Positions 9,088 to 43,142 are shown, counted from the first letter of the stretch. The stretch: 64,000 nucleotides of DNA from Alphaproteobacteria bacterium (GCA_965242595.1 OZ251464.1:1188301-1252300); one strand, 5' to 3'. Notes: generated from the sequence alone by a model not told the origin. Numbers and translations are program-made.

Positions 9088-11094
<2,007 letters not shown>

Positions 11095-11509: not shown

Positions 11510-11513
11510 GGCG

Positions 11514-11852: not shown

Positions 11853-11862
11853 GCGCCGCTGG

Positions 11863-13308
11863 CTAGCCGGCGCGGGTGCCGCCCACGGTCAGCCCTTCGA
11901 GCAGGACGGTGGGCTGGCCGACCCCCACCGGCACGGTCTGCCCGTTTTTGCCGCAGATGCCGATGCCGCCGTCCAGCGCCATGTCGTTGCCGACCGCCCG
12001 CACCCTGGTGAGGATGTCGGTGCCGTTGCCGATCAGGGTGGCGCCCTTGACCGGGGCGCCGATTCTGCCGTTTTCGATCAGATAGGCCTGCGCGGCCGAG
12101 AACGAGAATTTGCCGTTGGTGGTGTCCACCTGGCCGCCGCTGAAATGGGCGGCGTAGAGGCCCTTTTTCACCGAGGCGACGATCTCGCCCGGCTCTTGCC
12201 CGCCCGCCGTCATGCCCGCCATCATGAAGGTGTTGGTCATGCGCGGCATGGGCCGATGGGCATAGCTCTGGCGGCGTCCGTTGCCGGTGGCCGCCTGGCC
12301 CATCAGGCGGGCGTTCATGCGGTCGTGCATATAGCTTTTCAGGATGCCGTCCTCGATCAGCACGGTGGCGGAGGTGGGCGTGCCTTCGTCATCGACGGTC
12401 AGCGAGCCGCGCCTCTCGTCGAGGGTGCCGTCGTCCACCACGGTGATGCCCGGCGCGGCCACCCGCTCGCCCATCAGCCCGGCGAAGGCGGAGGTTTTCT
12501 TGCGGTTGAAATCGCCTTCCAGGCCGTGGCCGACGGCCTCGTGCAGCAGAATGCCGGGCCAGCCGGGGCCCAGCACCACCGCCATTTCGCCGGCCGGTGC
12601 GGCCACCGATTCCAGATTGACCAGGGCGGCCGCCAGCACCTCGTCGGCCAGTGCCCGCCAGGCGTCTTCGGCGACGATGGCGCGGTAGAGCGCGCGGGCG
12701 CCGCGCCCGTTGCGGGCCGATTCCATGCGTCCCCCGGCCTCCACCACGCAGGAGATGTCGATTCGCACCAGCGGCCTGATGTCGTCTGCCCGGCGCCCGT
12801 CGGGGCGCAGGATCGAGACCGCCTGCCAGCTGCCGGAAAGCGCCGCCTGCACCTGGCGCACCCGCTCGTCCTTGGCGCGCAGATAGGAATCGATCCGTTG
12901 CAACAGCCGCACCTTGTCGTCGAAGGCCATGTCGCCCAGCGGGTTGGCCTCGCCGTAGAGGCGGCGGTTGGTGGCCGGCGGGGCCGGTGCCAGGCGGGCC
13001 GTGCCGCCGGCGATGCCGGCCACTGCCCGCCCGGCGCGGGCGAGCGCGGCCTGCGACAGCTCGCTGGCATGGGCATAGGCGGCGGCCTCGCCGACCACCC
13101 GGCGCAGGCCCAGGCCCTGGGAGACATCGTAGCTTGCCGTCTTCAGCCTGCCGTCGTCGAACTCCAGCGTTTCCGCCTGGCGGTGTTCCAGGAACAGCTC
13201 GCCATCGTCGGCCCCTGCCAGCGCCTCGCCGAGCATGGCGACGGTCTGGCCCCGGTCGAGGTCGGTGCGGGCGAAGAAGAGCTCGTCTGTGGTGGGGGTC
13301 TGGGGCAT
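11863..13308 (-). CDS. tldD: metalloprotease TldD
   Basis: PmbA/TldD family: ...HEAVGHGLEGDFNRKKTSAF... and ...GLYAAHFSGGQVD...; 481 aa from MPQTPTTDEL. Confidence 0.9.
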   Translation of the reverse strand: MPQTPTTDELFFARTDLDRGQTVAMLGEALAGADDGELFLEHRQAETLEFDDGRLKTASYDVSQGLGLRRVVGEAAAYAHASELSQAALARAGRAVAGIAGGTARLAPAPPATNRRLYGEANPLGDMAFDDKVRLLQRIDSYLRAKDERVRQVQAALSGSWQAVSILRPDGRRADDIRPLVRIDISCVVEAGGRMESARNGRGARALYRAIVAEDAWRALADEVLAAALVNLESVAAPAGEMAVVLGPGWPGILLHEAVGHGLEGDFNRKKTSAFAGLMGERVAAPGITVVDDGTLDERRGSLTVDDEGTPTSATVLIEDGILKSYMHDRMNARLMGQAATGNGRRQSYAHRPMPRMTNTFMMAGMTAGGQEPGEIVASVKKGLYAAHFSGGQVDTTNGKFSFSAAQAYLIENGRIGAPVKGATLIGNGTDILTRVRAVGNDMALDGGIGICGKNGQTVPVGVGQPTVLLEGLTVGGTRAG

Positions 13309-13502
13309 GGCAGCCTCCTTCAGACTGCATGTCACGGCTTTGCCCCGTCCGTCAAGGGTTGCCTGGGCGCCCCTCCGCCGGTGGGGAGCGAGGGCTTGTG
13401 AAGGAAAGGCGGGGTCGTGTATGGTCCGCCGCCAGGCCGGGGCGCTGGCGGGGTTTCGCGGCAAGGTCGCATCCGGCCCCGCACATGCCAGGGAGGAAGG
13501 CG

Positions 13503-16005
<2,503 letters not shown>

Positions 16006-16022
16006 CCGGTAGGCCCCTCGAC

Positions 16023-16904
16023 GTGACGATCGCCGCCGCCACGGTTGCCTCGCCAGGCGATTTCCTGGCGCTGCTGAAGCCGCGCGTCATGTCGCTGGTC
16101 ACCTTCACCGGTGCCGTCGGGCTGGTGGTTGCGCCCGGCCAGTTGCATCCGCTGCTGGCGGCCGTGGCCGTGCTGTGCATCGCCGTCGGTGCCGGCGCCG
16201 CCGGCTGCATCAACATGTGGTATGAGCGCGACCTGGACGCCGTTATGGAGCGCACGCGCCAGCGCCCGCTGCCGGCCGGGCGCATCGCGCCGCAGAGCGC
16301 GCTGGAATTCGGCGTCATGCTGGCGGTGGCGTCGGTCACCGTGCTCGGTCTGGCCGCGGGCTGGCTGGCGGCGGCCCTGCTGGCGGCGGCCATCGCCTTT
16401 TATGTCTTCGTCTATACGGTCTGGCTCAAGCGGCGCACGGTGCACAACATCGTCATCGGTGGCGCGGCCGGTGCCTTCCCGCCGCTGATCGGCTGGGCGG
16501 CGGCGGCGGGCGAGCTGGCGCCCCTGCCGCTGGCGCTCTTCGCCATCGTCTTCTTCTGGACACCGCCCCATTTCTGGTCGCTGGCGCTCTGCCGCGCTCA
16601 GGATTATGCCGCCGCCGGCGTCCCCATGCTGCCGGTGGTGGCAGGTGGGCAGATCACGCGCCGCCACATCCTGTTCTACAGCCTGCTCATGGTGCCACTG
16701 TCGCTCGCTCCCTGGTTCCTGGGCGCGGCCGGGCTGCCCTATGCTTGCGGTGCCGGCGCGCTGTCGGCGCTTTTCGCCGGCGGGGCGATCAACCTCCTGT
16801 GCCGTCGTTCCCAGGCGGCGGCGCTGTGGTTGTTCCGCTATTCCATTCTGTATCTGGCCCTGCTGTTCGCGCTGCTGGTGGCAGACCATGCCGTCGCTTC
16901 GTGA
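16023..16904 (+). CDS. ctaB: protoheme IX farnesyltransferase (heme O synthase)
   Basis: DFLALLKPRVMSLV...NMWYERDLDAVMERTRQRPLPAGR...GWAAAAGEL...FFWTPPHFWSLA. GTG start at 16023, uncertain. Confidence 0.88.
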   Translation: MTIAAATVASPGDFLALLKPRVMSLVTFTGAVGLVVAPGQLHPLLAAVAVLCIAVGAGAAGCINMWYERDLDAVMERTRQRPLPAGRIAPQSALEFGVMLAVASVTVLGLAAGWLAAALLAAAIAFYVFVYTVWLKRRTVHNIVIGGAAGAFPPLIGWAAAAGELAPLPLALFAIVFFWTPPHFWSLALCRAQDYAAAGVPMLPVVAGGQITRRHILFYSLLMVPLSLAPWFLGAAGLPYACGAGALSALFAGGAINLLCRRSQAAALWLFRYSILYLALLFALLVADHAVAS

Positions 16905-28727: not shown

Positions 28728-28967
28728 TCACTCCACGCTTTCTCGGTTATCGGGGGCGAGGAGTTCTCGCTTGACCTGCTCCCAATCCAGGAATGGGTCA
28801 TCGGGATCGCCGAGCCGTTCGGTGGCCACCGCGAGGTCTTCCAGATCTTCGAGATAATGTTCGAGCGCCTGGCGGACGATCTCCGCCCGGCTGCGCCTGA
28901 GCCGGGCCGCCGTCACACCCAGTGCTTCGGCAAGCCCATCCGGCAAGCGCGCAGTGACCTGGCTCAT
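28728..28967 (-). CDS. ribbon-helix-helix (CopG/RelB-like) antitoxin-type DNA-binding protein, no toxin partner
   Basis: 79 aa; N-terminal RHH (VTARLPDGLAEALGVTAARLRRSRAEIVRQALEHYLE) and an acidic C-terminal tail (DPDDPFLDWEQV). No adjacent toxin ORF on either side. Confidence 0.6.
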   Translation of the reverse strand: MSQVTARLPDGLAEALGVTAARLRRSRAEIVRQALEHYLEDLEDLAVATERLGDPDDPFLDWEQVKRELLAPDNRESVE

Positions 28968-29041
28968 GGCACAACCCCTGTGACGGCGCTTTCAGCCATA
29001 GGGCCGGGGCAGGGCGCCGGTCAATCCGCCCCATTGCTGCC

Positions 29042-29071
29042 CTGGCCACCGTTCCGCTAGGCTGGCCACCG
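29042..29071 (+). promoter_or_regulatory. direct repeat CTGGCCACCG, two copies 20 bp apart, immediately upstream of the nthA RBS
   Basis: CTGGCCACCG at 29042-29051 and 29062-29071; the second copy abuts the SD GGGAGG (29071-29076) before the nthA ATG at 29085. Confidence 0.3.
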
Positions 29072-29084
29072 GGAGGACGCGCCC

Positions 29085-29675
29085 ATGGCGGCACATGCCC
29101 ACGGACGGCCCGAATCGGATCTGGCACTGCGCGTCAAGGCGATCGAGCAGCTCCTGAGCGAGAAGGGGATCGTCGATCCCGCCGCCATCGACCGGCTGGT
29201 GGAACTCTACGAAACCCGCATCGGCCCCCACAACGGCGCCAGGGTGGTGGCCCGGGCCTGGAGCGATTCCGCCTACAAGGCCAGGCTGCTGGAGGACGCC
29301 AGCGCCGCCATCGCCGAGCTGGGCATCTCCGGCATGCAGGGCGAGAACATGGTGGTGGTGGAGAACACGGAAAGCGTCCACAACGTGGTCGTGTGCACGC
29401 TGTGTTCCTGCTACCCCTGGCCGGTGCTGGGCCTGCCGCCGCGCTGGTATAAAAGCCCGCCCTACCGGGCGCGGGTGGTGCGCGAACCGCGCGCGGTGCT
29501 GGCCGAGCTGGGCTGCCCGGTGGCCGATGAGGTGGAGGTCCGGGTGTGGGATTCCAGCGCCGAGATCCGCTACATGGTGCTGCCGCGCCGGCCCCAGAGC
29601 AGCGACGGGCGGCGGGAAGACGAGCTGGCCGCCCTGGTCACCCGCGACGGCATGATCGGCGTCGCGCCGCTGTAG
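29085..29675 (+). CDS. nthA: nitrile hydratase alpha subunit, cobalt-type
   Basis: Metal-binding motif [10 protein letters not shown] (Co-type is CTLCSC; Fe-type is CSLCSCT); 196 aa. Confidence 0.9.
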
Positions 29676-29685
29676 GGAGGCGTCC

Positions 29686-30357
29686 TTGGACGGCATCCAC
29701 GATCTGGGCGGCATGCACGGCTTCGGCCCCATCGCGCGCGAGGCGGACGCGCCCCTGTTTCACGCCGAATGGGAAAGGCGGGCCTTCGGCATCGCCTTGC
29801 AGGCCGCCGACGGCGTCGGCTTCGGCGACGACCATCTGCGCAGCCATATCGAACGCATCCCGCCGCAGACCTATCTGCGGGCCAGCTATTACGAGCTGTG
29901 GCTGCGCGCCGTCGAGGCCATCCTGACCGAACGCGGCATCCTTTCCGCGCCCGAGATCGCCGCGCGCATGGCGGCCCCGAAGGACCCCGGACACAGGGCG
30001 CCGGGCAGCGGCCCCAGCCTGGACGAGGTCGAAGCGGCCGTCGCGGCCGGGGCCAGCACCAGGCGCCCCGGCGCCCATATTGCGGCGCGCTTTCACATCG
30101 GCCAGGCGGTGCGGGTGAAAAACGACCACCCCGCCCATCACACCCGCGTCCCGCGCTATGTCCGCGCCCGGCGGGGCCAGGTGGTGGCCGGTCACGGCGT
30201 CTTCGTCTTCCCCGACAGCAACGCCCAGGACCGGGGCGAGCAGCCCCAGCACTGCTACACGGTGAAGTTCGCCGCCGAAGAGTTGTGGGGGGCGCAGGCG
30301 CGCGCGGGCGACAGCCTCTGCCTGGACCTGTGGGAGTCCTATCTGGAAGCGGCATGA
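29686..30357 (+). CDS. nthB: nitrile hydratase beta subunit
   Basis: MDGIHDLGGMHGFGPI N-terminus characteristic of NHase beta; 223 aa. Confidence 0.9.
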   Translation: MDGIHDLGGMHGFGPIAREADAPLFHAEWERRAFGIALQAADGVGFGDDHLRSHIERIPPQTYLRASYYELWLRAVEAILTERGILSAPEIAARMAAPKDPGHRAPGSGPSLDEVEAAVAAGASTRRPGAHIAARFHIGQAVRVKNDHPAHHTRVPRYVRARRGQVVAGHGVFVFPDSNAQDRGEQPQHCYTVKFAAEELWGAQARAGDSLCLDLWESYLEAA

Positions 30358-31247
30358 ACGCCCCGCCCTGCCGCCCCACCACCCTGGCGGGCTATCGGCG
30401 GGTTTCGGCGCGCTACACCACGGCTGAGGCCATGCGGCGCGGCCTGGCCTTCCGCCCGCGCCCCAGCGATGTCTTCATCGCCACCTATGCCAAGGCCGGC
30501 ACCACCTGGATGCAGCAGATCGTCCACGGCTTGCGCACATCGGGTGCCATGGATTTCGCCGAAATCACCGAGGCGGTGCCCTGGATCGAGGTGGCCTACG
30601 ATCTCGGCATCGATCCCGGGGCCGAACAGGCCGCCTGGCCACGCGCCTTCAAAACCCATCTCGCCTGGCACGATGTGCCCAAGGGCGGGCGCTATATCGT
30701 TGTCTTTCGCGATCCGCAGGCGGTGGCGGTCTCGCTTTACCGGTTTCTGGCGGGTTGGATGTTCGATCCCGAAGGCATTTCCCTCGCCACCTTCCTGCGC
30801 CAGGAATTCGCCGCCGGTGGCGCGGGCGACGATTACTGGCGCAACACGCTTTCCTGGTGGCAGGTGCGCGGGCGCCAGGATGTTCTGCCCCTGATCTACG
30901 AGGATATGGATGCCCGCCTGCCGCAGGTGGTGGCGCGGGTGGCCCGCTTCATCGGCCTTGGCCCGTCGCCCCAGGTGCTGGAGATCGCCACCCGCCAGGC
31001 GCGCTTCGATTTCATGAAGGCCCATGCCGGCCGCTTCGACGACAACCTGCTGCGCCGCCACCGCGACCGCGCCGCCAGCCTGCCCGACGACGGCGAATCG
31101 AACAAGGTCGCCAACGGGCGTTCGGGCGAAGAGCGCCTCGGCGACGATCTCCTGCGCCTGCTTGCGCGCTGCTGGCAGGATGGCATCGCCCGCCACGGCG
31201 GCCCGGCCGATTACGCCGCCCTGCGCCGCTCTGTCGCCATGCCCTGA
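30354..31247 (+). CDS. PAPS-dependent sulfotransferase domain protein
   Basis: 5'-PSB-like YAKAGTTWMQQIV and 3'-PB-like VVFRDPQAVAVSLY motifs of cytosolic-type sulfotransferases. The ATG overlaps the nthB stop (ATGA). Confidence 0.7.
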   Translation: MNAPPCRPTTLAGYRRVSARYTTAEAMRRGLAFRPRPSDVFIATYAKAGTTWMQQIVHGLRTSGAMDFAEITEAVPWIEVAYDLGIDPGAEQAAWPRAFKTHLAWHDVPKGGRYIVVFRDPQAVAVSLYRFLAGWMFDPEGISLATFLRQEFAAGGAGDDYWRNTLSWWQVRGRQDVLPLIYEDMDARLPQVVARVARFIGLGPSPQVLEIATRQARFDFMKAHAGRFDDNLLRRHRDRAASLPDDGESNKVANGRSGEERLGDDLLRLLARCWQDGIARHGGPADYAALRRSVAMP

Positions 31248-31373
31248 CGCGGCGGCGCCCTCCGCCCTTGCATTCGCCGGCTGCTTCCTCTCTTATTCGT
31301 CCATTCCAGGGCGGTGCCGAACGCGGGCTTCGGCCCGGCGGCGCCGGGGGGTTCGAACAGGGAGGATGTTGCC

Positions 31374-32462
31374 ATGAAGAGGCGCAAATTTCTCACCGCT
31401 GCCGGTCTGGCGGCAGGCGGGGCGGCCGCTGCCGCCGCATTCCCGAAACCCGCCATTTCCCAGGGGCGCATGAGGCTGACCATGGTCACCTCCTGGGGCC
31501 GCGGCCTGGCCGGTGTGCACGATGCGGCGCAGCGCTGCGCCGACAACATCGTCGCCATGTCGGACGGCATGCTCGATGTCGATCTGAAGGCCGCTGGCGA
31601 GCTGGTGGGCGCCTTCGAATGTTTCGATGCGGTCTCGTCGGGCCAGGCCGACATGTATCACGCCGCCGATTACTATTTCGTCGGCCAGAACCCGGCCTTC
31701 GCCTTCTTCACCTCGCTGCCCTTCGGCATGACGGCGCAGGAACTCAATACCTGGTATTACCACATGGGCGGGCGCGAGCTGCAGGACGAGCTGACCGAGC
31801 TCTTCAATCTGAAGACCTTCGAGGCCGGCAACACCGGTGCCCAGGCCGGCGGCTGGTTCCGCAAGGAAATCCAGGGGCCGGAGGATTTCAACGGCCTCAA
31901 ATTCCGCATGCCGGGCCTGGGCGGCAAGGCGCTGGGCCTGCTGGGCGCTTCGGTGCAGAACCTGCCGGGGGCCGAGGTCTATCAGGCGCTGGCCTCGGGC
32001 GCCATCGACGGCACCGAATGGATCGGCCCCTGGGCCGACGAGAAGGCCGGCTTCTTCGAGATCACCAAGATCTACTACACCTCCGGCTTCCACGAGCCCG
32101 GCCCCGGCCTCTCGCTGGCGGTCAACCGCGAGGTTTTCAACCGCATGTCCGCCTCGCAGCAGAAGATCGTCGAGGCCGCCGCCGCCGAGGCCAATGTCTG
32201 GAATCTGGCGCAGTTCCTCGCCAACAACGGCGCCGCGCTGCAACGGCTGGTCGCCGCCGGCGTCAAAACCATGACCTTCCCCGATTCGGTCTGGGATGCC
32301 TTCGGCCAGGCTGCGCAGCAGGTCTATGACGACAACATGGCCGATCCCATCTTCGCCAGAACCTTCGCCTCCTACCGCGACGCGCTGGCAAAGCTGGCGG
32401 GCTGGGGCGCGCTGTCGGAAGGCGCCTATATGGCCCAGCGCAACCGCGTGCTGGGCATCTGA
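31374..32462 (+). CDS. dctP: TRAP transporter substrate-binding protein (DctP family), TAT signal
   Basis: MKRRKFLTAAGLAAGGAAAAAA twin-arginine signal; DctP-type periplasmic receptor of about 360 aa. SD GGGAGGATG. Confidence 0.8.
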   Translation: MKRRKFLTAAGLAAGGAAAAAAFPKPAISQGRMRLTMVTSWGRGLAGVHDAAQRCADNIVAMSDGMLDVDLKAAGELVGAFECFDAVSSGQADMYHAADYYFVGQNPAFAFFTSLPFGMTAQELNTWYYHMGGRELQDELTELFNLKTFEAGNTGAQAGGWFRKEIQGPEDFNGLKFRMPGLGGKALGLLGASVQNLPGAEVYQALASGAIDGTEWIGPWADEKAGFFEITKIYYTSGFHEPGPGLSLAVNREVFNRMSASQQKIVEAAAAEANVWNLAQFLANNGAALQRLVAAGVKTMTFPDSVWDAFGQAAQQVYDDNMADPIFARTFASYRDALAKLAGWGALSEGAYMAQRNRVLGI

Positions 32463-32537
32463 TCTGCGTGCGGGGGCGCGGGGGCGCGGCGGCGTCCCCG
32501 CCCGCGGCGCCCGCGCGCCATCTCGCGGCCCTGGGCC

Positions 32538-33440
32538 ATGTTCGATCCCGTCCTCTGGCTGGCGCGCCATCTGCTGGGGGGAATCGCCGATCTGGCCACG
32601 CTGCTGGCGCCCGCCTCCTGGCCGGATCCGTCCCGTCCCGAAGGCATCGTGCGCATCGTCCATTACGGCGCCTCGGTCGAGTTGCTGTTCGTCATCGTCG
32701 ATGTCGCGCTGATCCTGCTGGTCGCCGGCCTGTTCTGGCACGCCCTGCTGTGGCGGGTGGTGCGCGTCATCGAGGGCATCGCCAATGTCGTCGGGCGCTG
32801 GGCCGCCTGGGCCGGGCTGGCGATGGTACTGCAGCAGGTGATGATCGTCGCCCTGCAGCGCATCTTCCGCGTCTCCGAGATCACGCTGGGGCCGTTCGGT
32901 CTGGTCTTTACCAAGGATTTGAGCTGGTTCGGCGAGGAGCTGAAGCTCTACAACGCCGCCATCGTCACCCTGTGCGCTGCCTACACCTTCGTCCAGGGCG
33001 GCCATGTGCGGGTCGATCTGTTCTATTCGGCCATGGGCTACCGCGCCCGGCGCCTGGTCGATATGGCCGGTTCGCTGCTGTTCGTGCTGCCGTTCACCGC
33101 CGTCGTCTGGCTGTTCGGCTGGTCCTTCCTGTGGCGCCACCTGGTCACGCCCAAGGTCTCGGCGAGAGATACCCTGGAGACTCTGGAGCGCAAGGCGGCC
33201 GTGCTGCGCTGGAATGTGGAGACCATCGGCTTTTCGCCCAATGGCTTCGATGCCTATTTCCTGTTCAAGGTGCTGCTGCTGGCCTTCGCCGGGCTGATGT
33301 TCCTGCAAGGCCTGGGCTTCTTCTACCGCCGCCTGCTGGAATATCTGGAAGGGCCGGAGGCGGAAGACCGCTTCAGGGATCTGGACGAGGCCCCGGCCAC
33401 CGCCCTGCCGCCCGCCCCGGCATCCACCGATAAGGTTTAG
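32538..33440 (+). CDS. dctQ: TRAP transporter small permease (DctQ family, long form)
   Basis: Multiple transmembrane helices; its position between dctP and dctM. Confidence 0.7.
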   Translation: MFDPVLWLARHLLGGIADLATLLAPASWPDPSRPEGIVRIVHYGASVELLFVIVDVALILLVAGLFWHALLWRVVRVIEGIANVVGRWAAWAGLAMVLQQVMIVALQRIFRVSEITLGPFGLVFTKDLSWFGEELKLYNAAIVTLCAAYTFVQGGHVRVDLFYSAMGYRARRLVDMAGSLLFVLPFTAVVWLFGWSFLWRHLVTPKVSARDTLETLERKAAVLRWNVETIGFSPNGFDAYFLFKVLLLAFAGLMFLQGLGFFYRRLLEYLEGPEAEDRFRDLDEAPATALPPAPASTDKV

Positions 33441-33449
33441 GGGGCGGCG

Positions 33450-35798
33450 ATGGGGCTGGACGGGGTCGAAATCGGCCTTCTGATCGTCTTCGCCTGCCTG
33501 TTCGCCGGCATTCTCTCCGGCTATCCGGTGGCCTTCGCCATCGGTGGCGCGGCGCTGGCCGCCTTCGCCATCCTGGCGCTGCTGGGCGATGCCGGCTGGC
33601 TGGTGCGCGAGACCATCGACGACCGCAGCGACGCCTATCGCGCCCTGGTGGAAAGCGGCGTCAGCGAGCACGCCATCACCCTGTTCCGCTATCCCGATCT
33701 GCCCACCTATGCCGCGCCGCTGTTCGAAGGCGGCGCCGAGGGCGCCTTCTTCCGCACACTCGCCTTCGTCGTCAACCGCATGAACGAGCGGGTGCTGGCC
33801 GGCCAGTCGATCGAAACCCTGCTGGCGGTCGCCATGTTCGTGCTGATGGGGATCGCGCTGGAACGCTCGCGCATCGCGCAGGATCTGCTCACCACCATGG
33901 CGCGGGTGTTCGGCGCTCTGCCGGGCGGGCTGGCGGTGTCGGTGGTGGTGGTGGGCGCCTTTCTAGCGGCATCCACCGGCATCGTCGGCGCCACCGTCGT
34001 CACCATGGGCCTGCTGTCGCTGCCTACCATGCTGCGCCACCGCTATGCGCCGGAGCTCGCCACCGGCATCATCTCCGCCTCCGGCACGCTGGGCCAGATC
34101 GTGCCGCCCTCCATCGTCATCGTGCTGCTGGGCACGCTGGCGGGCGATCTCTACGCCACCGCCCAGGAAAAGCGGGCGCTGGCCGCCGGCTGCCCCGACG
34201 CGCTCACCTATCTGGGCGAGGCGGCGGTGGTCTCGGTCGGCACCCTGTTCAAGGCGGCGATCGTGCCCGGCCTGATGCTGGCTCTGCTCTATGCCGGCTA
34301 TGTCTTCGTCTATGCCCTCATGCGCCCCCACAAGGCGCCGCCGGTCCCGGCCGCTGCCGCAGGCGGGGGCGCCACCGTCGCCCTGCCGGCCAGGCTGCTG
34401 TGGCTGCTGGCCGTTCCGGCCATCGCCGTCGCCCTGGCCGGCGGGCTGTTCACCTTCGGCATGGCCGGGCCGCAGGCGCCCGATATCGCCGCCCTGCAAG
34501 GCCAGCCCCCGGCGCCGCAGCTGCGCACCCATGTCGATGAGCGCTGCCAGGCAGCGATGATCGAACTCCACGGCCAACAGGCGTGGGATCGGTCCGTGGC
34601 GGCGCAGGCGGCGCTTGCCGCCCTGGAAACCGCGCCGCCCGAACCGGAGGAGCTGGCCCGCCTGGAAGCCGAAGCGCTGGCCGCCGTGGCGCCACTGGCC
34701 GAAGGCATGGTGGTGGCGATGCTGTTTCTGGCCCTGGTCCTGGCGGTGGCGCGGGGCGTGGCGCCGGATGCGCCGGTGCTGCCGCTGCTGGCCGGCGGCG
34801 GCGGCATCCTGGCGGTGCTGGCGGCCGATGCCCTCTGGGTCGGCCCTCACACCAGCCCCGGCACGGCGGCGCTGATCTATGCGCCACCCTTCGCCGCCGT
34901 CCTCTACGGGCTGCGCCACGCGCTGAAACGGCTGGCGGCGGTGGAGCTGCTGCGGGTGGTGTTCCCGCCGCTGGTGCTGATCGTGGCGGTGCTGGGTTCC
35001 ATATTGGGCGGCATCACCAATCCCACGCCGGCGGCGGCGCTGGGCGCGGCCGGCGCGCTGATGCTGGCCGCCCATCGCAAGCTGGCAGAGGCCGGCAGGC
35101 GCCAGGGCATGCGCTTCATCCTGATGGCGGCCTTCGCCATCGTCGTCTTTCTGCTGGTGGGCGTGAACTTCGACCTCAGAACCTCCATCGAGGAGGTCGG
35201 TTTCGAAAACTGGACCGCCTTCGCGGTTGCGGCCCTGGCCTATCACCTGGCCTTCGCCGGCTTGGTCTATGCCTGCTGGGTGCTGCTGAGGGGCGGCGTT
35301 CTGACCTCGGTGGTGCGCGATACCGCCAAGGTCACCGCCATGGTGTTCGCCATCCTGATCGGCTCGCAGATGCTGAATCTGGTGGTGATCTCGTTCGGCG
35401 GCGAAACCTATATCCAGGATCTGCTGCGCTCCTTCGACGAGGAATGGATGGTCTTTCTGGTGGTGATGGCGGTGCTGTTCGTGCTGGGCTTCGTGCTCGA
35501 TTTCCTGGAGATCATCTACATCGTCATCCCCATCGTCGGCCCGGTGATCTATGGCGGCGCGCTGGATCCCAAATGGGTCACGATCATGATCGCGGTCAAT
35601 CTGCAAACCTCGTTCCTCACCCCGCCCTTCGGTTTCGCCCTGTTCTATCTGCGCGGCGTGGCGCCTCCCGGCATCACCACCGGCCAGATCTACCGCGGCG
35701 TCGTGCCCTTCGTCGTCATCCAGATGGTGGGGCTGGCCCTGATGTGGCTGGCCCCGGAGATCGTGACCTTTCTGCCAGACCTGCTGCCGGAAAACTGA
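33450..35798 (+). CDS. dctM: TRAP transporter large permease (DctM family) with a long Ala/Pro-rich inserted loop
   Basis: 782 aa, many transmembrane helices with DctM-like N- and C-terminal halves, and a roughly 200-aa low-complexity insertion in the middle. Confidence 0.8.
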   Translation: MGLDGVEIGLLIVFACLFAGILSGYPVAFAIGGAALAAFAILALLGDAGWLVRETIDDRSDAYRALVESGVSEHAITLFRYPDLPTYAAPLFEGGAEGAFFRTLAFVVNRMNERVLAGQSIETLLAVAMFVLMGIALERSRIAQDLLTTMARVFGALPGGLAVSVVVVGAFLAASTGIVGATVVTMGLLSLPTMLRHRYAPELATGIISASGTLGQIVPPSIVIVLLGTLAGDLYATAQEKRALAAGCPDALTYLGEAAVVSVGTLFKAAIVPGLMLALLYAGYVFVYALMRPHKAPPVPAAAAGGGATVALPARLLWLLAVPAIAVALAGGLFTFGMAGPQAPDIAALQGQPPAPQLRTHVDERCQAAMIELHGQQAWDRSVAAQAALAALETAPPEPEELARLEAEALAAVAPLAEGMVVAMLFLALVLAVARGVAPDAPVLPLLAGGGGILAVLAADALWVGPHTSPGTAALIYAPPFAAVLYGLRHALKRLAAVELLRVVFPPLVLIVAVLGSILGGITNPTPAAALGAAGALMLAAHRKLAEAGRRQGMRFILMAAFAIVVFLLVGVNFDLRTSIEEVGFENWTAFAVAALAYHLAFAGLVYACWVLLRGGVLTSVVRDTAKVTAMVFAILIGSQMLNLVVISFGGETYIQDLLRSFDEEWMVFLVVMAVLFVLGFVLDFLEIIYIVIPIVGPVIYGGALDPKWVTIMIAVNLQTSFLTPPFGFALFYLRGVAPPGITTGQIYRGVVPFVVIQMVGLALMWLAPEIVTFLPDLLPEN

Positions 35799-36633: not shown

Positions 36634-39600
36634 TCATGAGAGGTCAGGCTGCGGCGCCGTCGTCTCGCCATCCGACATCTCTTCGTCTGCCCCAGCCTCA
36701 ACGGCCTTGCGAGACTTTCGATCCTCTTCAAGAAGTCGCTCGAGTTGGTCGTGGATCCTTTTGGCAGTAGCATCGGGGTTCCGAAACCAGTCGGTCGACC
36801 AGACCCGAAGAATCGTCCAGCCAAGCTCCTCCAGCACAGCTTGGCGGAGCTTGTCGCGATCACGTGCCGTCGCTGAGGAATGATACCGAGCTCCATCGCA
36901 CTCAATGCCCGCAAGATAGTTCCCAGCAGCGTCAGGATGGATGACTCCAAGATCCACGCGAAAACCGGATACCCCGATCTGGGTGCGGATTTCCCATCCC
37001 TTTGCGCGAAACGCCTCAGCCACCGCTTCCTCGAAAGGGCTCTCCGCGGGACCGAGGGAACCTTCATCACGAGAAAACAGTGCGATGGCCCCTCGCTCTG
37101 CGTAGTCAAGAAAGCTCTTGAGGTGTTTTACCCCGTCGGCCCGTGTGCGTCCGAGATCGACCTGTTCAGCCTGGATCGAAGAAAAGACATGAAGCTCGCG
37201 GCGTGCTCGGGTGATAGCGACATTGAGGCGTCTCTCCCCTCCTGTATCGTTGATTGGGCCGAAGTTCATCGTAAGTTTACCGGCACGATCAGGTCCAAAG
37301 GTGATTGAGAATAATATCACATCGCGCTCATCTCCTTGGATGTTTTCGAGATTTTTCACAATGACTGGTTCCTCGCGCTCATCTGAAAAAAACCATTCCA
37401 GGCGAGGATCTTTTCGACAAATCTGGTCGAGAAAATCCTGGACCAGAGACTGCTGTTGAATATTGAAGGTAATGACACCAAGGCTATGGCGATCACTTTC
37501 AGGGACCGCAAGCCAATCCGTGAGGCGCTGCCTCACTACTTCAGATATTGCCTTCGCCTCCTTCTCATTCACGCGAGCCTGCCCCCGCGCGTACACTCCG
37601 TCGACTTTGTGGAATTTGACCGCTTTGGAACCGGTAGAAGGTGCCGGGAAAGTAACAAGCCTGTCATTGTAGTAAAAGTGGTTGGAGAAGGCGATGAGAG
37701 CCTCGTCGCGACTCCGGTAGTGCCATTCGAGGCGTCGCTGGCGAACTCCTGCGGTCAAGACTTCTTCCAGGATTGATGGTAAGTCGCGTTCAAACTCCAG
37801 AAAATCTTCATCTTCGTCATCGGCACGTCCAAAGAAATACGTCGGTGGAAGTTGCATAGGATCACCTACAACGATTGTCTGACGAGCTCGTGCAATGGCG
37901 CCGATTGCATCCCAGGTCGTGATTTGAGAGGCCTCGTCAAAAATGACAAGGTCGAAGGTCGTGTGATCTGCTGGGAGATACTGGGCTACAGACAGAGGAG
38001 ACATCAACACACACGGCGCAAGTTTTCCGAATGTCTTTGGAAGATTTGTCAGAAGTTGACGAATCGGCATGGAGGGGCGTTTGAGTCCAAGTTGGTGTCG
38101 GAGAATTCCGGGTTCAGATCTCCTTGTCACAACGTCTTTCGCCGGGAGCCCGTGGTCAATACGTCGCATCACCTCAGCAGGCGCAAGCTCCGCCGCGATA
38201 CCATCGAGTTTGCGGAAGTTCTCAACAACGTTTCTATGCTTCCAATGGATGAAGCGTCGAAGCTCGTCGCTTGCATCCATTGCAAGAGGTAGCCACCAAG
38301 CTGCATAAGACTGTTCGAATGCCTCTTCCGCCGACCCTTCGATTAACCCAGACTCAAGTGCCTCAAGTAGTGGACCTAGCCCACGTTGTTTCGCACGATT
38401 GGATTTTTCTACCCACTGGGCCCAGTCAACAAGGTGTGCGCGCTCGGTCACAATGGTAGACAGAGCTACCTCAATCTCCGTAACGCTCAATCCATTAGGA
38501 ATCACACCACCCTTTTGTGCAAAAGCATGAATTCCTTCACGGATTTCTTCTTCTGCAGAGAGATACGCTTTGAGAACATCGAGAAGAGCCCCGGGGGAAG
38601 CTGAACCAAGGGTGTCCATAGCCGACTCAAAGCGAATCGAATTTTCTGCTTCTGAACGTAGATTGGATACAGCTTTCCGAAATGTGATAGCCTGTCGCAC
38701 GACTTCCGTCGATTGTGTCACATCCGTTCCATCAAGAGTTTTAGCAACCTGTTCAATGGGGTTTTCGTGGATAGCACGATCTCGCTCCTGCACCACGAAA
38801 AGTGCTTTCAAGTCCACGCTAGGATCGGCTAAACCGCTGTCAGCGTAGGTTTGTAGAAGTTTCCGAACCTTCTTCTGTGCAAAAATGGAAATGGGCCAGA
38901 ATTTCGCCTGAGCTTCGCGCCAACTTACGTCCAACTGCTCAAGAGCCATTCTTCGCACCGTATCAAGCGAATAGGTAGCCATTGTGCTGGACACCGCGGT
39001 GTCGCGTTCTCTAACATCTTTCGAAAATGCTTCAGCCAGCAGTGAGAGTTGCTCGGCAGGCAAATTGGGCACAGATGAGAAATCGAGTGCAGAGCTTTCT
39101 GTACGGGATGCGAGAGCCATGAGGCGTGTGCGACGCCCGCTCTCAAGGTTCGGATTTGAACAAAGGCCGAGCCCGCGGGCGAGTGCGTGTTCCGCCTGCC
39201 TCAAACGGGTAAGTGTCGCGCGGAGGGTCTCCACAACCTCAAGGAGTTCAGTTTCCCACTTGTGGGACCAATGCTCGCCGCGAACAAAAGAAAGGGCAGG
39301 TCTGTCCTTGACTACGTCATGCGTCTGCGCAAGTTCGACGGCAAGTGACACCAAGTTTCGGTAACTCTCCACATCATGTGCGTCCTTGGAGGTGAAAGAG
39401 AGTTCGAAGAGTGCCTTGCCGCGAGCGATACGAGTCACTGCTTCAAAGACGCTGAACCCTTGAGTTCCCTTGGCGTGGAGAGCCTGAACATAGGCATTCA
39501 AACGATCTCGTGACAGCTTCAAATCTTCAGTGACTCGGATCCACTTCTTTTCGTCTGTATCGGGGGAACGATCCCATCCGCGACCGAGTTGTGCAAGAAC

Positions 39601-41892
39601 CGATTTACGGTCGGTTTTGTTTGAGTGAAGTTCGAGTACTGCATCACCAAGGCCGGTTTTTGCCAAGCGGCGATGCACAACATCGAGCGCCGCCGCTTTC
39701 TCGGCAACGAAAAGCACAGTCATACCCTCACCCAGGCACTGGGCAATGATATTGGTGATGGTCTGGCTCTTTCCGGTTCCCGGCGGTCCGATGAGGACGA
39801 AGTCACGGCCCTCCGAAGCTGCAACGACTGCGGCAAGCTGTGAACTGTCCACCGACAACGGGGTAAGGAGGTCCCGTGGGGTGCGACGTTGATCAATCTC
39901 TTCTGGGGCGATATCGATGCCCGATTCAGATCTTTCGTGTGAGTATTCAGTCTCGCCGATAAGATATTTCACCAAACGATTCTTGCGAAGCTCCCTTTCG
40001 CGATCAACAAGATCTTTCCACATCAAATATTTTGCAAAAGAAAACGTCGAAAGTGCCAATTCCTCAACCACTTCGAAGCCTGTGATGTTGCGCACCTTGC
40101 GACGTATAGTGTCGAAAACAAGCGGAAGATCAATGCCACTCTCGTCGCGTGGTAACTCACCCTCAAGTTCCGGGATTCGAAGATCAAAGTCTCGCTTCAG
40201 GAACTCCAATAGAGTGAGATTAAATCGGACGTCGTCTTCGTGGTGCGCGATTCGAAAGGGAGATTGGGCGGAACGGCGTTCGAGTTTGGTTGGCACCAGG
40301 ATTAAAGGCGCATGATAAAGGCGCGTATCGCCTTCCGTCCTCTTCCAGCGCAGGAATCCTGCAGCGAGGAAGAGTGTGTTCGTGCCACCTTCCTGCATGT
40401 CGCTCTTTGCGCGGCGGTAGAGGGTTAGCAGGCGGCTATTCATCTCTTTGCTAGTGAGTGGAACGACGAGTTGACGACACTCGAAGGCATCACGAATTAC
40501 ATCTTCCTCTATTCGTTGCGCTTCTTGAGGGGAGACGGTACGGTTGCCAATAGGATCCTCGTCGTTGAGCGAAAGTGTGCGGAACTTCTTTCCGGCAGCG
40601 AGAGCGTCTTCGAGAGTGCCAACATCGGGGCAGCGCAGAGGCAGGGTCTGCTTACTTTCACGGTAGTTGAGAAGTCGATTACGAAGCGAGAGGTCAAGAA
40701 GCTTGCGCTGCCAGCGTTTGATTCGATCCTGGGGCGTGTCTGGTTCCTCTTCTCCAATCTCGCTCGGAAGAAGGCCGAAATCGGGTAATGGTGGAAGGGC
40801 GGCGGGTTTCACGTCGTCCGATGAGCTGGAATCGGGCGAATCCGGTGCTCTGTGGCTCGCGAGCGGGCGAATCCGCGCCGAACGGGAGCGCGAGATATCA
40901 ACTGCGATCACGAACTCCGGGTCGCGGTCCTCCGAGAAACGACGTCGGCCCTCGTCGACTGCTTGATCAAAACGAATCGAAGGTCGGCTGGTCAAGAGGG
41001 TAGTTTCGATTGGCACGAACTCCCGGGCTTGCACAGCCTTGCGGATGGCGACCACATCGGGCTCCGTCACATGGCCGAAATCTCGTTTGCAAACCCAGAC
41101 GCCGACCCAGGCATGACCTTGAGAGAACAGGACGACCGAATTGAGACCGGCAGCCTCGAAGGCTGCGGCAAGGAAAAGGGAAGAATCGAGGCAAGTCGCA
41201 AGACCCTCCCTTGTCATCCGGCCAGGGCTCCGAATTTTTTGACCCTCCCGTTCGAACGAGGTGGGTGGTTCGGCATATGTGAGTCCCAAGCCAGTGGTGG
41301 CCGACCAGATGGCGGCGGCAAGAAGATATGCACGCCTTGGGTCTCCAGACTGATAGCCGTTCATTGAACCGTCCCGGCCCGCGGCTTCCAGAATCCGCGC
41401 CGCGTCTTTCACCACATCTGCAATAGCCGAATCGTTCGGAGAGACGAACGCCGCAAGAATCTGGGCCATGTCGCCCACTCCACCCCACTCGTCGCGCGCA
41501 AGAAGGTCGATCTGGCACTTCTCCTTGAGTGTTGGAATGTCCTTTGCCTCTAAGCTGAACTCGAGTTCTCCAACCTCCGCTTCGTCGAGGCCTGCCAAGT
41601 GTTCGATATCGAGGGACGTGGTCATGTCGCGGACCGCGAACTCCTCCCCACTCCCGATCCGATCGACGTTCCATATCTTCTCTCGGATGACGGGCGGTGC
41701 GGAACGGAGCGTGATCCGCACATCCGTGAGGGCCTCAGCAGTAAGGTTGTTAATCGCGAGCCGCTCGATGATCGTGACGCCGTTCTGGGCGGAGGCAAAG
41801 TTGACCCTCCGCAAAACTTGATGCTGGAGAGATACGACGCCGGATTCCTTCTGCCCGCCGTGAACATCGATGTTGTTGTTATCGTTTGACAA
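36634..41892 (-). CDS. giant multidomain protein: TGc-like domain, DUF4011-like region, Upf1-like SF1B helicase, C-terminal Vsr/DUF559-like endonuclease; candidate defense helicase-nuclease
   Basis: Upf1-like SF1B helicase motifs: Walker A VLIGPPGTGKSQTI; FDLVIFDEASQIT (motif II); TIVVGDPMQLPP (III); YRSRDEALIAFSNHFYY (IV); QGDERDVILFS; NVAITRARREL (VI). DUF4011-like LLDLSLRNRLLNY upstream of the helicase. C-terminal GFRVDLGV...YLAGIECDGARYHSS..RDRDKLRQAVLEELGWTILRVWSTDW is DUF559/Vsr-like (REase_MTES_1575-type). N-terminal GLATCLDSSLFLAAAFEAAGL ... GHAWVGVWV ... PIETT looks like a transglutaminase-core Cys/His/acid triad. GC is about 50% against about 68% in the flanks. The listed ORF begins at a TTG at 41985; a better start is the TTG at 41890-41892, 8 nt after GGAGGAG (41901-41907), exactly where GC drops. 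Confidence 0.85.
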   Translation of the reverse strand: MSNDNNNIDVHGGQKESGVVSLQHQVLRRVNFASAQNGVTIIERLAINNLTAEALTDVRITLRSAPPVIREKIWNVDRIGSGEEFAVRDMTTSLDIEHLAGLDEAEVGELEFSLEAKDIPTLKEKCQIDLLARDEWGGVGDMAQILAAFVSPNDSAIADVVKDAARILEAAGRDGSMNGYQSGDPRRAYLLAAAIWSATTGLGLTYAEPPTSFEREGQKIRSPGRMTREGLATCLDSSLFLAAAFEAAGLNSVVLFSQGHAWVGVWVCKRDFGHVTEPDVVAIRKAVQAREFVPIETTLLTSRPSIRFDQAVDEGRRRFSEDRDPEFVIAVDISRSRSARIRPLASHRAPDSPDSSSSDDVKPAALPPLPDFGLLPSEIGEEEPDTPQDRIKRWQRKLLDLSLRNRLLNYRESKQTLPLRCPDVGTLEDALAAGKKFRTLSLNDEDPIGNRTVSPQEAQRIEEDVIRDAFECRQLVVPLTSKEMNSRLLTLYRRAKSDMQEGGTNTLFLAAGFLRWKRTEGDTRLYHAPLILVPTKLERRSAQSPFRIAHHEDDVRFNLTLLEFLKRDFDLRIPELEGELPRDESGIDLPLVFDTIRRKVRNITGFEVVEELALSTFSFAKYLMWKDLVDRERELRKNRLVKYLIGETEYSHERSESGIDIAPEEIDQRRTPRDLLTPLSVDSSQLAAVVAASEGRDFVLIGPPGTGKSQTITNIIAQCLGEGMTVLFVAEKAAALDVVHRRLAKTGLGDAVLELHSNKTDRKSVLAQLGRGWDRSPDTDEKKWIRVTEDLKLSRDRLNAYVQALHAKGTQGFSVFEAVTRIARGKALFELSFTSKDAHDVESYRNLVSLAVELAQTHDVVKDRPALSFVRGEHWSHKWETELLEVVETLRATLTRLRQAEHALARGLGLCSNPNLESGRRTRLMALASRTESSALDFSSVPNLPAEQLSLLAEAFSKDVRERDTAVSSTMATYSLDTVRRMALEQLDVSWREAQAKFWPISIFAQKKVRKLLQTYADSGLADPSVDLKALFVVQERDRAIHENPIEQVAKTLDGTDVTQSTEVVRQAITFRKAVSNLRSEAENSIRFESAMDTLGSASPGALLDVLKAYLSAEEEIREGIHAFAQKGGVIPNGLSVTEIEVALSTIVTERAHLVDWAQWVEKSNRAKQRGLGPLLEALESGLIEGSAEEAFEQSYAAWWLPLAMDASDELRRFIHWKHRNVVENFRKLDGIAAELAPAEVMRRIDHGLPAKDVVTRRSEPGILRHQLGLKRPSMPIRQLLTNLPKTFGKLAPCVLMSPLSVAQYLPADHTTFDLVIFDEASQITTWDAIGAIARARQTIVVGDPMQLPPTYFFGRADDEDEDFLEFERDLPSILEEVLTAGVRQRRLEWHYRSRDEALIAFSNHFYYNDRLVTFPAPSTGSKAVKFHKVDGVYARGQARVNEKEAKAISEVVRQRLTDWLAVPESDRHSLGVITFNIQQQSLVQDFLDQICRKDPRLEWFFSDEREEPVIVKNLENIQGDERDVILFSITFGPDRAGKLTMNFGPINDTGGERRLNVAITRARRELHVFSSIQAEQVDLGRTRADGVKHLKSFLDYAERGAIALFSRDEGSLGPAESPFEEAVAEAFRAKGWEIRTQIGVSGFRVDLGVIHPDAAGNYLAGIECDGARYHSSATARDRDKLRQAVLEELGWTILRVWSTDWFRNPDATAKRIHDQLERLLEEDRKSRKAVEAGADEEMSDGETTAPQPDLS

Positions 41893-41964
41893 TTTCTTCT
41901 CTCCTCCAGGCTTCCCCTTCGGGGGATCCCGGCTGCTCGACACCCCGAATGCGCCCCGCGAATC

Positions 41965-41992
41965 TTCTAAGGCCGAACGCAGCAATTTTCAA
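41965..41992 (-). promoter_or_regulatory. candidate sigma70-like promoter for the island gene (TTGAAA-N16-TTAGAA)
   Basis: On the minus strand: TTGAAA (complement of 41987-41992), a 16-nt spacer, then TTAGAA (complement of 41965-41970). It lies about 75 nt upstream of the proposed TTG start, and a small CCCCC-GAA-GGGG hairpin sits in the leader. Motif-by-eye only. Confidence 0.25.
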
Positions 41993-42317
41993 GTCAGCCC
42001 TGGAGAGCGATCTGGGCGGTCAGTCGGGCCGATGCCGGCTATCCACAGCACATGGGAGGAGGTCTCCAAGGGCAAGCATCACCGCCCCTCTATGAATTCG
42101 GTGAAACCGCGACGCTCGACGGAGGGCTGGTGGTGATCGGCTCCAGAAAGGTGGATGCTGGGTTGGTGGCTCATGCGGGTGCTTTGCAGGCAGGCGGCAG
42201 GCTGGTCCTGATTTGTCCCGCCGCCCGTCACGAGCTTCCCCGCGCCCACCTACCGCGCCGTTGCCGCCCCGTCCGGCCTCTGCTATCGCTCGTCCCGGCA
42301 GCGGCAGCGGGGGCGCC

Positions 42318-43142
42318 ATGTTCGCAAGGACGCTGGCAGGCTTGAGGGCGGCGGGCGAAGAGAAGGTCGTCGCCCACGGCAAGGCGCGGGTGGTGCGCCT
42401 GGTGACGCGCCGCGACGGCATGGGCTTTTCCATGTCGGATGTGCGCGTCGCTGCCGGCGTGGTGAGCGAGCTTTGGTATAAACACCATTGGGAAGCCAAC
42501 TACATCGTCGCCGGCACCCTGGGCGTGGAGGAGGTGAACGGCGGGCGTTCCTGGACCCTGGGGCCGGGCGGCCTCTATTGCGTCGGGCCTCGCGACCGCC
42601 ACCGCCTGCGCGCGGTGAGCGATGTGCAGGCCGTCAGCATCTTCAATCCGCCGCTGACCGGCGACGAAAACCACGACAACGACGGCGCCTATCCGCCCGG
42701 CGGCGATGTTCCGGAGGGCCAGCCAGCGATGTTCGTGCGCACGCTTGCCGAGCTGCGCGCCGCCGGGCGGGAGATGACGGTGGCCGATGGCAGCGCCCGC
42801 AGCCTGCGCATGGCGCTGAAGGCCGACGGGCTGGGTTTCTCGGTCAGCGATGTCCGGCTGGCGGCCGGCAGCCGCAACAGGCTTTGGTATAAGAACCATT
42901 GGGAGGCCAACTATGTCCTGGCGGGCAAGGGCGCCGTCACCGCCCTGGCAACGGGCCAGGAATGGGCCCTGGCGCCCGGCATGCTCTATTGCGTCGGCCC
43001 CAGCGACCGCCACGCCATGCACGCCCACAGCGATCTGCACCTGGTCTCCATCTTCTGCCCGGCGCTGATGGGCCACGAACAGCACGACGCCGAAGGCAGC
43101 CTGGCCGCCAGCGGCCCCGTGCCGCCCGGCCCTTCCGCCTGA
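42318..43142 (+). CDS. tandem double-cupin protein with two ectoine synthase (EctC)-like domains
   Basis: Two consecutive copies of about 137 aa, each with the EctC-like WYKHHWEANY(I/V)(V/L)AG and L(Y)CVGP(R/S)DRH motifs. No ectA or ectB nearby. The ORF begins at 42213, but MFARTL (42318) matches the start of the second copy (MFVRTL). Confidence 0.7.
   Translation: MFARTLAGLRAAGEEKVVAHGKARVVRLVTRRDGMGFSMSDVRVAAGVVSELWYKHHWEANYIVAGTLGVEEVNGGRSWTLGPGGLYCVGPRDRHRLRAVSDVQAVSIFNPPLTGDENHDNDGAYPPGGDVPEGQPAMFVRTLAELRAAGREMTVADGSARSLRMALKADGLGFSVSDVRLAAGSRNRLWYKNHWEANYVLAGKGAVTALATGQEWALAPGMLYCVGPSDRHAMHAHSDLHLVSIFCPALMGHEQHDAEGSLAASGPVPPGPSA

Follow-up and report, generated by a model that had tools for sequence, protein, structure and literature searches.

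Organization of the locus

The 64,000-nucleotide stretch of an alphaproteobacterial genome analysed here (GCA_965242595.1 OZ251464.1:1188301-1252300; hereafter the window) carries, on its plus strand between positions 29085 and 35798, a cobalt-type nitrile hydratase (NHase) placed next to a sulfotransferase (SULT) and a tripartite ATP-independent periplasmic (TRAP) transporter, and lacks a gene for an NHase accessory protein. The alpha subunit is encoded by nthA (29085–29675, 196 amino acids (aa); Pfam NHase_alpha, 1.7e-88; TIGR01323) and the beta subunit by nthB (29686–30357, 223 aa; TIGR03888). They are followed by the gene of a cytosolic-type SULT dependent on 3'-phosphoadenosine 5'-phosphosulfate (PAPS) (30354–31247, 297 aa; Sulfotransfer_1, PF00685, 5.7e-32) and by three transporter genes: dctP for a TakP-family solute-binding protein with a twin-arginine signal (31374–32462, 362 aa), dctQ for the small membrane subunit (32538–33440, 300 aa) and dctM for the large one (33450–35798, 782 aa). 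An earlier reading of the sequence alone (the original prediction) had set all six on one strand, and all are recovered there at or near the positions it assigned to them, together with two details that it had singled out, the ATGA overlap of SULT with nthB and the twin-arginine signal of dctP.

From nthA to dctM the successive intergenic gaps are 10, −4, 126, 75 and 9 nt. At the nthB/SULT junction, GCGGCATGAAC, the ATG of SULT shares four nucleotides with the TGA of nthB (ATGA). A ribosome-binding site, GGGAGGA, lies 7 nt 5' of the nthA ATG. The same motif precedes the ATG at 31374, which is the real start of dctP in an open reading frame (ORF) opening at 31314, and the product begins from there with MKRRKFLTAAG. 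At the distal end of the locus dctM and the convergent ate overlap at their 3' ends by 83 nt (35716–35798), and L166, the closest relative of the window among the loci described below, has the same overlap.

The nitrile hydratase

Both subunits are recognized by their family models well above cutoff: the nthA product scores 301 bits against the TIGR01323 equivalog (cutoff 250) and that of nthB 249 bits against TIGR03888 (cutoff 152). The metal-binding motif reads VVCTLCSC at residues 102–109 of the alpha subunit, with CTLCSC at residues 104–109 (nt 29394–29411); in VCTLCSC the threonine marks the cobalt type, the iron type having serine at that position. The best matches of the two subunits in the PDB are all Co-type enzymes, the closest being that of Pseudomonas putida, with 278 bits for alpha and 189–192 bits for beta. 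Compared with the P. putida beta subunit (3QXE_B), NthB conserves Arg52, Glu56, Tyr68/69, Trp72 and the HTRxPRY motif (here HTRVPRY), and has leucine at position 71, not the histidine of 3QXE. The cobalt type had been predicted from the CTLCSC motif, and the equivalog score and the structural matches bear it out.

Thiocyanate hydrolase was considered and rejected, as TIGR03887 gives 184 bits against a cutoff of 291 and the beta subunit is a single chain of 223 aa, not split in two. An NHLP-type leader of a peptide that is synthesized on the ribosome and modified after translation (RiPP) was also set aside, since the NHLP/TOMM models match nothing but brief segments of nthA, at scores far lower than that of the NHase equivalog. 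By family membership, the enzyme is a genuine Co-type nitrile hydratase (EC 4.2.1.84). The missing accessory gene is a feature of the operon rather than of the enzyme, and membership in the family is therefore not excluded by its absence. Between 19 NthB sequences of the clade described below and 102 outgroup sequences, the clade-specific features are only Q39, G45, L112 and a short linker insertion.

Conservation and rearrangement among related genomes

About 20 related loci were gathered through SULT searches in genome and metagenome collections, lists of SULT and NthB proteins, and context look-ups. In the window, rnc, era, recO and parC lie upstream of the stretch from nthA to dctM, and ate lies downstream on the opposite strand; the related loci have a TakP-family TRAP transporter in this same slot between parC and ate. 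Their ParC proteins are 70–89% identical to that of the window, and the nearest named taxa by ParC (64–77%) are Rhodospirillales, Dongiaceae, Arenibaculum, Pelagibius and Kiloniellales. The loci come from a family-level group of uncultured Rhodospirillales-like alphaproteobacteria, represented by metagenome-assembled genomes (MAGs) and metagenome contigs.

Four arrangements are found. In type A (L001, L074, L081, L083–85, L087 and L088) the order is parC–dctQ–dctM–nthA–nthB–SULT, with DctQ of 175 aa and DctM of 518 aa, followed by dctP and ate on the opposite strand; type A' (L082 and L174) is the same without nthAB. In type B, to which the window, L166 and the partial L086 belong, the order is parC–nthA–nthB–SULT–dctP–dctQ–dctM, with DctQ of 300 aa and DctM of 782 aa, followed by ate on the opposite strand; type B' (L167, L168/169, L172 and L173) lacks SULT. 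L089/90 and L108 show nthAB–SULT, the TRAP part lying outside their coverage. In types A and A' the enzyme genes thus sit between dctQM and dctP, and the 4-nt overlap of nthB and SULT is found in both type A and type B loci.

NHase, SULT and TRAP genes are linked in about a dozen related loci, in two gene orders, and this recurrence bears out the linkage first noted in the window; NHase and SULT are, however, not an obligatory pair, as the A' and B' loci demonstrate. The TRAP transporter is the constant part of the locus, and each of the two enzymes is dispensable.

Neighbour-joining trees of ParC and of NthA plus NthB are largely congruent, and the NHase has accordingly descended vertically together with the locus. 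Type B' occupies the deepest branches (L168, L172 and L173). The simplest reading of these trees is that an accessory-less NHase was paired with the TRAP transporter at the outset, that SULT was later inserted after nthB, that the TRAP paralog was exchanged in some lineages, and that the NHase was lost in A'. Resting on distance trees of few taxa, this order of events is tentative. Insertions are tolerated in the slot, as L173 illustrates with three genes between nthB and dctP (9108–16235): one for a fibronectin-III repeat protein of 870 aa, and two ORFs of 239 and 932 aa.

Absence of the accessory gene

Reviews describe a three-gene operon as the norm for NHases (PMC7321127). The accessory gene, a beta-homologue, corresponds to the model TIGR03889. 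In the outgroup loci L170 and L171, whose NthB proteins are 52–54% identical to that of the window, an accessory gene does lie directly 3' of nthB, and in L171 it overlaps the beta-like gene by 4 nt just as SULT overlaps nthB in the window. Their products, an 86-aa protein of Hypericibacter adhaerens (L170) and a 124-aa one of L171, both with NHase_beta_N, served as queries. By tblastn against the 64-kb window they matched the N-terminal domain of nthB and nothing else, and against all fetched loci they likewise matched this domain of each nthB and revealed no separate accessory ORF in any locus of the clade. When NthB was run by phmmer against the 561 stop-to-stop segments of 50 aa or more that the window contains, nothing but nthB itself came back. 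Pfam scans of most long ORFs in the window outside 18.8–23.3 kb yielded no CobW/COG0523 protein, NiCoT permease, amidase or aldoxime dehydratase; that segment is syntenic with L166 genes for an M32 peptidase, thrC, an M16 peptidase and a GNAT protein. The original prediction had noted the lack of both an activator and a cobalt permease, and within the scope of these searches it was right on either count.

The absence of the accessory gene is thus real and a property of the whole clade at these loci, not of one genome. Either the NHase matures unaided, as we infer, or its accessory protein is encoded elsewhere in the genome. A side observation concerns L171 itself, which at 6001–7028 has an NHase beta-like gene (218 aa) and after it the 124-aa accessory gene, with no alpha gene detectable in the locus. 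L171 and the type B' locus L167 come from the same assembly (ERZ19488992), with a guanine–cytosine (GC) content of 69.2% and 69.3%, respectively.

The sulfotransferase

The SULT retains the hallmarks of an active enzyme. Its 5'-phosphosulfate-binding (PSB) loop, YAKAGTTW at residues 45–52, aligns with TYPKAGTTW of SULT1C2, and in 29 homologues of 46–95% identity the residues K47, G49, T50, T51, W52, H102 (in KTHL), R119 and S127 (in RDPxxxxVS) are invariant; by alignment with SULT1C2 these include the PSB-loop lysine (K47), the catalytic histidine (H102) and the arginine and serine that bind the 3'-phosphate (R119 and S127). An AlphaFold2 model (mean predicted local distance difference test score, pLDDT, 90.5; predicted TM-score 0.90) retrieves with Foldseek cytosolic SULT1/2/3 enzymes in complex with PAPS or 3'-phosphoadenosine 5'-phosphate over the full length (E about 1e-14, TM 0.66–0.72). 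The Pfam match ends at residue 224, leaving the C-terminal 70 residues outside; in this part the segment SNKVANGRSGE, with conserved K251, G255 and G258 and partly low pLDDT (252–257), was compared with the RKGxxGDWK-type motif.

More than 1,200 members of the family were detected in Proteobacteria, Acidobacteriota, Chloroflexota, Actinomycetota and other phyla. Within this subfamily the mean column identity across phyla is 63%, and the window protein is 21–27% identical to solved members of PF00685. An NHase adjoins the SULT in 2 of 80 genome loci, the two closest, and is absent in the other 78. Nor does the wider family have a conserved partner: the 147 ORFs flanking it at about 75 loci fall into 120 different Pfam families and offer no clue to the substrate. 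The commonest of these, exonuclease III, occurs at eight loci and is explained by lineage synteny. A phylogeny of the SULT, which had been suggested along with the original prediction, recovers the 12 TRAP-linked sequences as an exclusive clade among 156 sampled family members, with types A and B interleaved within it. Sequence and model agree in portraying a SULT that looks active, probably a catalytically competent small-molecule sulfotransferase that has its own role and was recruited once to the TRAP locus.

The TRAP transporter

For both types of DctP the best solved relatives belong to the TakP group (7UG8, 2HZK/2HZL, 4PET, 5CM6 and 4YIC), which the window protein matches with 219–239 bits. 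Types A and B are 40–42% identical to each other. Type A DctP scores 292 bits against solved TakP-family proteins and 243 bits against the window DctP, being closer to the former, and the two are therefore distinct paralogs.

In TakP, sodium pyruvate is contacted by Arg177, Tyr100, Gln156, Glu214, Trp215 and Glu240 (PMC1839085). All six contacts (Y100, Q156, R177, E214, W215 and E240) are identical in the DctP of the window and of types A, B and B'; in type A' the cation ligand E214 is replaced by aspartate. Elsewhere in the pocket the window protein departs from TakP at F40W, I47V, V97A, A212G and V245L, of which F40W, V97A and V245L are common to types A, B and B', and A' has F40W, V245L and threonine at 97. 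Since these pocket residues are not those of TakP, the ligand probably differs in its side chain as well and may be an analogue. To judge from these residues, it is most likely a monocarboxylate whose C2 carries an oxygen-type substituent and whose side chain is not like that of TakP ligands. The original prediction of an organic-acid-like substrate agrees with the TakP family and the six retained contacts.

The two A' loci (L082 and L174), in which nthAB has been lost, differ from type A in DctP at the TakP-equivalent positions 97, 213 and 243 (T97, V213 and G243) in addition to 214. This hints, in a weak but suggestive manner, that a change of ligand accompanied the loss of the NHase; the weakness lies in the fact that the A' lineage is a single event.

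The membrane subunits diverge in size between the types, DctQ having 300 aa in the window versus 175 aa in type A, and DctM 782 aa versus 518 aa. In DctM the difference includes an insertion of about 200 aa, rich in alanine and with predicted hydrophobic helices. The extra segments of DctQ and DctM have no Pfam match. The large sizes are kept in L166, L167, L168 and L172 (DctQ 298–308 aa, DctM 780–784 aa).

Transcription and flanking elements

Two promoter-like elements can be proposed. One, TTGCTG-N17-CTAGGC (29034–29065, plus strand), lies 5' of nthA in a block common to the window and L166. The other, TTGCAT-N17-TCTTAT (31268–31296, plus strand), lies in the 126-nt spacer before dctP; its conservation extends over the window, L166 and L167, regardless of whether SULT or nthB lies upstream. 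A generic sigma-70 scan found no promoter, including none at 29034–29065. No intrinsic terminator was found between the six genes, terminator-like matches of the scan falling only inside coding regions. Rfam searches of the 64 kb at gathering thresholds returned nothing, and thus no cobalt/NiCo or cobalamin riboswitch. From the sequence there are probably two promoters, with read-through possible, and the six genes may be co-transcribed.

The chromosomal surroundings are housekeeping genes of high GC content (about 70%); further functions in the window include a cytochrome oxidase, transketolase, ATP synthase F0, ispH, rnhA, SMC and others of similar kind. Between parC and nthA, an ORF of 79 aa on the minus strand (28728–28967) encodes an antitoxin-like ribbon-helix-helix (RHH) protein (CopG/RHH_1, 4e-09). 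After it only a seven-codon remnant, MTYSDQG*, stands where a toxin gene would be expected, and the relatives have a short spacer between parC and nthA. Downstream of the locus GC content dips to 53–59% over about 36–42 kb, against about 70% around it, and this low-GC island contains a gene on the minus strand (36634–41985) for a 1783-aa protein with DUF4011, an AAA_11/AAA_12 helicase and an MTES_1575 nuclease. As L166 has putA at the position of the island, between ate and an ectoine-synthase-like gene, the island looks like a recent insertion; it is possibly defence-related. The ectoine-synthase-like gene itself (42105–43142, plus strand), also present in L166, matches the Ectoine_synth/cupin domain in two stretches, suggesting a tandem-domain protein. 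By rnhB, a PIN-domain (VapC-like) ORF on the minus strand (58954–59487) and a small upstream ORF (59349–59753) are possibly a toxin–antitoxin pair.

Discussion

What could bring a nitrile hydratase, a sulfotransferase and a TRAP transporter together in these genomes? The explanation that we favour, on a modest balance of probability, is that the TakP-type TRAP locus takes up a carboxylate resembling a 2-oxo or 2-hydroxy acid, which is then processed by the NHase, the SULT or both, the arrangement being lineage-specific and the SULT an add-on. We infer both the functional link of the transporter with the enzymes and the substrate class. The Tat-exported DctP would bind a small monocarboxylate whose C2 carries oxygen or a similar substituent, and a cation along with it, in the manner of TakP, and DctQM would bring the captured solute into the cell. 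There the cytoplasmic Co-NHase would hydrate a nitrile group borne by, or arising from, the imported compound, and the SULT would O-sulfonate a hydroxyl or N-hydroxyl of the same substrate family with PAPS as donor. The SULT gene would have been inserted directly after nthB, into the translationally coupled spot usually held by the accessory gene. Candidate substrates that would fit the head-group site of TakP are cyano-substituted 2-oxo acids, 2-oxo-acid cyanohydrins and 2-oxo-acid oximes. The second class occurs in the cyanide assimilation of Pseudomonas (PMC6627978), and pyruvic oxime, a member of the third, is a real microbial metabolite (PMC5216522).

Several observations weigh against this explanation. 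Every functional link in it is drawn from gene context. The genomes that carry the loci are all related, as the 70–89% identity of their ParC indicates, so that much of the conservation could be inherited synteny and not independent evidence. The slot is prone to rearrangement, with the RHH gene and the low-GC island flanking the locus in the window and the three-gene insertion in L173. The comparison of 19 clade with 102 outgroup sequences revealed no clade-specific basic residue in NthB that would suggest an anionic nitrile, and neither an amidase, a PAPS-synthesis gene nor a cobalt transporter was seen in the window. With a conserved promoter-like element of its own before dctPQM, a single six-gene transcript is not certain. 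An accessory gene may, moreover, exist elsewhere in the genome, and L171 could supply an accessory protein in trans.

The strongest competitor, unlikely in our estimation and yet deserving serious attention, holds that there is no functional coupling at all, and that NHase, SULT and TRAP transporter are neighbours by descent in a rearrangement-prone slot and act on unrelated substrates. The restriction of all loci to related genomes and one slot speaks for it, as do the separate loss of each module, the solitary occurrence of the SULT in most lineages (120 Pfam families among its 147 neighbouring ORFs), the promoter-like elements that nthA and dctP each possess, and the foreign DNA inserted around the locus. 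Mere neighbourhood does not, however, readily account for the recurrence of the trio with two TRAP paralogs and in two gene orders, for the placement of the enzymes between dctQM and dctP in A and A', or for the retention of the 4-nt overlap of nthB and SULT in both orders. It also leaves aside that both DctP paralogs have the same pocket substitutions and that these are changed in the A' lineage, which has no NHase.

A more specific and rather improbable proposal is a route from oxime to amide. The TRAP transporter would import a 2-oxo-acid oxime, for example pyruvic oxime made from hydroxylamine and a 2-oxo acid; the SULT would O-sulfonate its N-OH, loss of sulfate (and CO2) would yield a nitrile, and the NHase would hydrate it. 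The SULT would thereby replace an aldoxime dehydratase in a PAPS-dependent, heme-free manner. Such chemistry has parallels in the sulfotransferase family. Retinol dehydratase dehydrates through a sulfonation and a subsequent elimination, desulfoglucosinolates are sulfonated at their N-OH by plant SOT16/18, and SULT1A2 acts on N-hydroxy-arylamines. The SULT matches the first of these (1FMJ/1X8J), a member of the same family, at about 5e-7 and the plant enzymes (5MEK, 8K9Y) at about 1e-8. The route is likewise consistent with the retention in DctP of the TakP head-group site for 2-oxo-acid-like ligands, with the translational coupling of SULT and nthB, with the fact that no aldoxime dehydratase was seen among the window ORFs scanned, and with the known occurrence of pyruvic oxime in microbes (PMC5216522). 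Against an obligatory two-step pathway argues the occurrence of NHase and SULT each alone in the same slot, in B' and A' respectively. The pairing of NHase with TRAP also seems older than the SULT in the ParC and NthAB trees, outside the clade the SULT never adjoins an NHase in the loci sampled, and the expenditure of one PAPS per nitrile would be expensive for catabolism. In its narrowest form, in which the SULT is a PAPS-dependent nitrile former acting on imported pyruvic or glyoxylic oxime that arises from environmental hydroxylamine and feeding an accessory-independent Co-NHase, the proposal becomes a shade less probable still.

The position of the SULT, in the overlapping spot after nthB where outgroups such as L171 have their accessory gene, raises the thought that it substitutes for the NHase activator as a chaperone, as a metallochaperone or in cysteine oxidation. 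This is largely refuted and very improbable: four B' lineages have the same NHase with neither SULT nor accessory gene, the two A' loci have SULT without NHase, more than 1,200 homologues in many phyla have no adjacent NHase, and the residues for PAPS binding and catalysis are invariant. By the phmmer search with NthB and the tblastn searches with the accessory proteins, moreover, the SULT resembles neither NHase beta nor accessory proteins. No more credible is the glucosinolate or aldoxime–nitrile pathway of a plant-associated bacterium envisaged in the original prediction. Its footing is chemical resemblance to the desulfoglucosinolate sulfotransferases of plants, which belong, as distant members, to the same Pfam family. 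The window showed no aldoxime dehydratase (Oxd), amidase, myrosinase or thioglucosidase, the binding protein is of the TakP type, and nothing ties the relatives to plants: they are MAGs and metagenome contigs of uncultured bacteria, and the names of several (Caspian Sea bins, CEU-series contigs) indicate aquatic or marine samples.

Uptake of a 2-oxo- or 2-hydroxy-acid-like carboxylate thus remains the explanation that we prefer. The individual components are of already known kinds, a Co-type NHase, a TakP-family transporter and a PF00685 SULT. New are the loss of the accessory gene throughout a clade, the embedding of the NHase in a TRAP locus, and the SULT in the accessory position; full-text literature searches found no paper describing an NHase operon with a sulfotransferase or a TRAP system.

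Co-type NHases are industrial catalysts, and their heterologous production needs the cognate activator. A natural clade without activator would, if its enzymes are self-maturing, be of practical use and bear on the self-subunit-swapping model; among natural bacterial two-subunit Co-NHases it would be the first group to mature in this way. The pairing of NHase and TRAP transporter would suggest that uncultured alphaproteobacteria draw on a so far unrecognised natural nitrile, cyanohydrin or oxime carboxylate. Should the oxime route prove true, it would provide a heme-independent alternative to aldoxime dehydratase and a new way of scavenging nitrogen from oximes and hydroxylamine. For the bacterial SULT subfamily with its more than 1,200 members, the link with a TakP-type DctP gives classes of ligands to screen.

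Comparison with known systems

With the Co-NHase operons of Pseudomonas putida NRRL-18668 (nthA–nthB–P14K; 3QXE) and Rhodococcus rhodochrous J1 (nhlBAE), both of which include an accessory gene, the locus has in common the order of alpha before beta, the VCTLCSC site and the beta residues Arg52, Glu56, Tyr68/69 and Trp72. Unlike them, it and its some 20 relatives have no beta-homologue accessory gene, nor is there one anywhere in the 64 kb; the spot after nthB is held by SULT or dctP, the genes lie inside a TRAP locus, and the beta subunit has Leu71. TakPQM of Rhodobacter sphaeroides (2HZK/2HZL) is of the same family as the window transporter, with the same six contacts and a Tat-type signal (MDRRSFITKAA in TakP), but the pocket residues of the window DctP differ and its DctQ and DctM have large extensions or insertions. 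The SULT has the fold and the Lys/His/Arg/Ser set of the PF00685 enzymes, which comprise mammalian SULT1/2/3, plant SOT16–18 and insect retinol dehydratase. Unlike the solved ones, it belongs to a very conserved bacterial subfamily, and linkage with NHase and TRAP genes occurs in this clade only.

The aldoxime–nitrile clusters (oxd–nha–ami) of Rhodococcus, Pseudomonas and Bacillus likewise have the NHase beside an enzyme that potentially makes or modifies its substrate. In contrast to them, no aldoxime dehydratase, amidase or regulator is seen here, and a transporter and a SULT are present instead; neither of the first two was found by the NHase among the window ORFs scanned or the called genes of the related loci. 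Cyanide assimilation in Pseudomonas pseudoalcaligenes CECT5344 (nit1C/NitC; PMC6627978) differs in having a nitrilase in place of an NHase and neither TRAP transporter nor SULT. It nevertheless offers a conceptual link between 2-oxo acids and nitrile hydrolysis, which we put forward as a hypothesis: in the cyanohydrin of a route of this type, both features recognised by a TakP-type site, the carboxylate and the C2 oxygen, are preserved.

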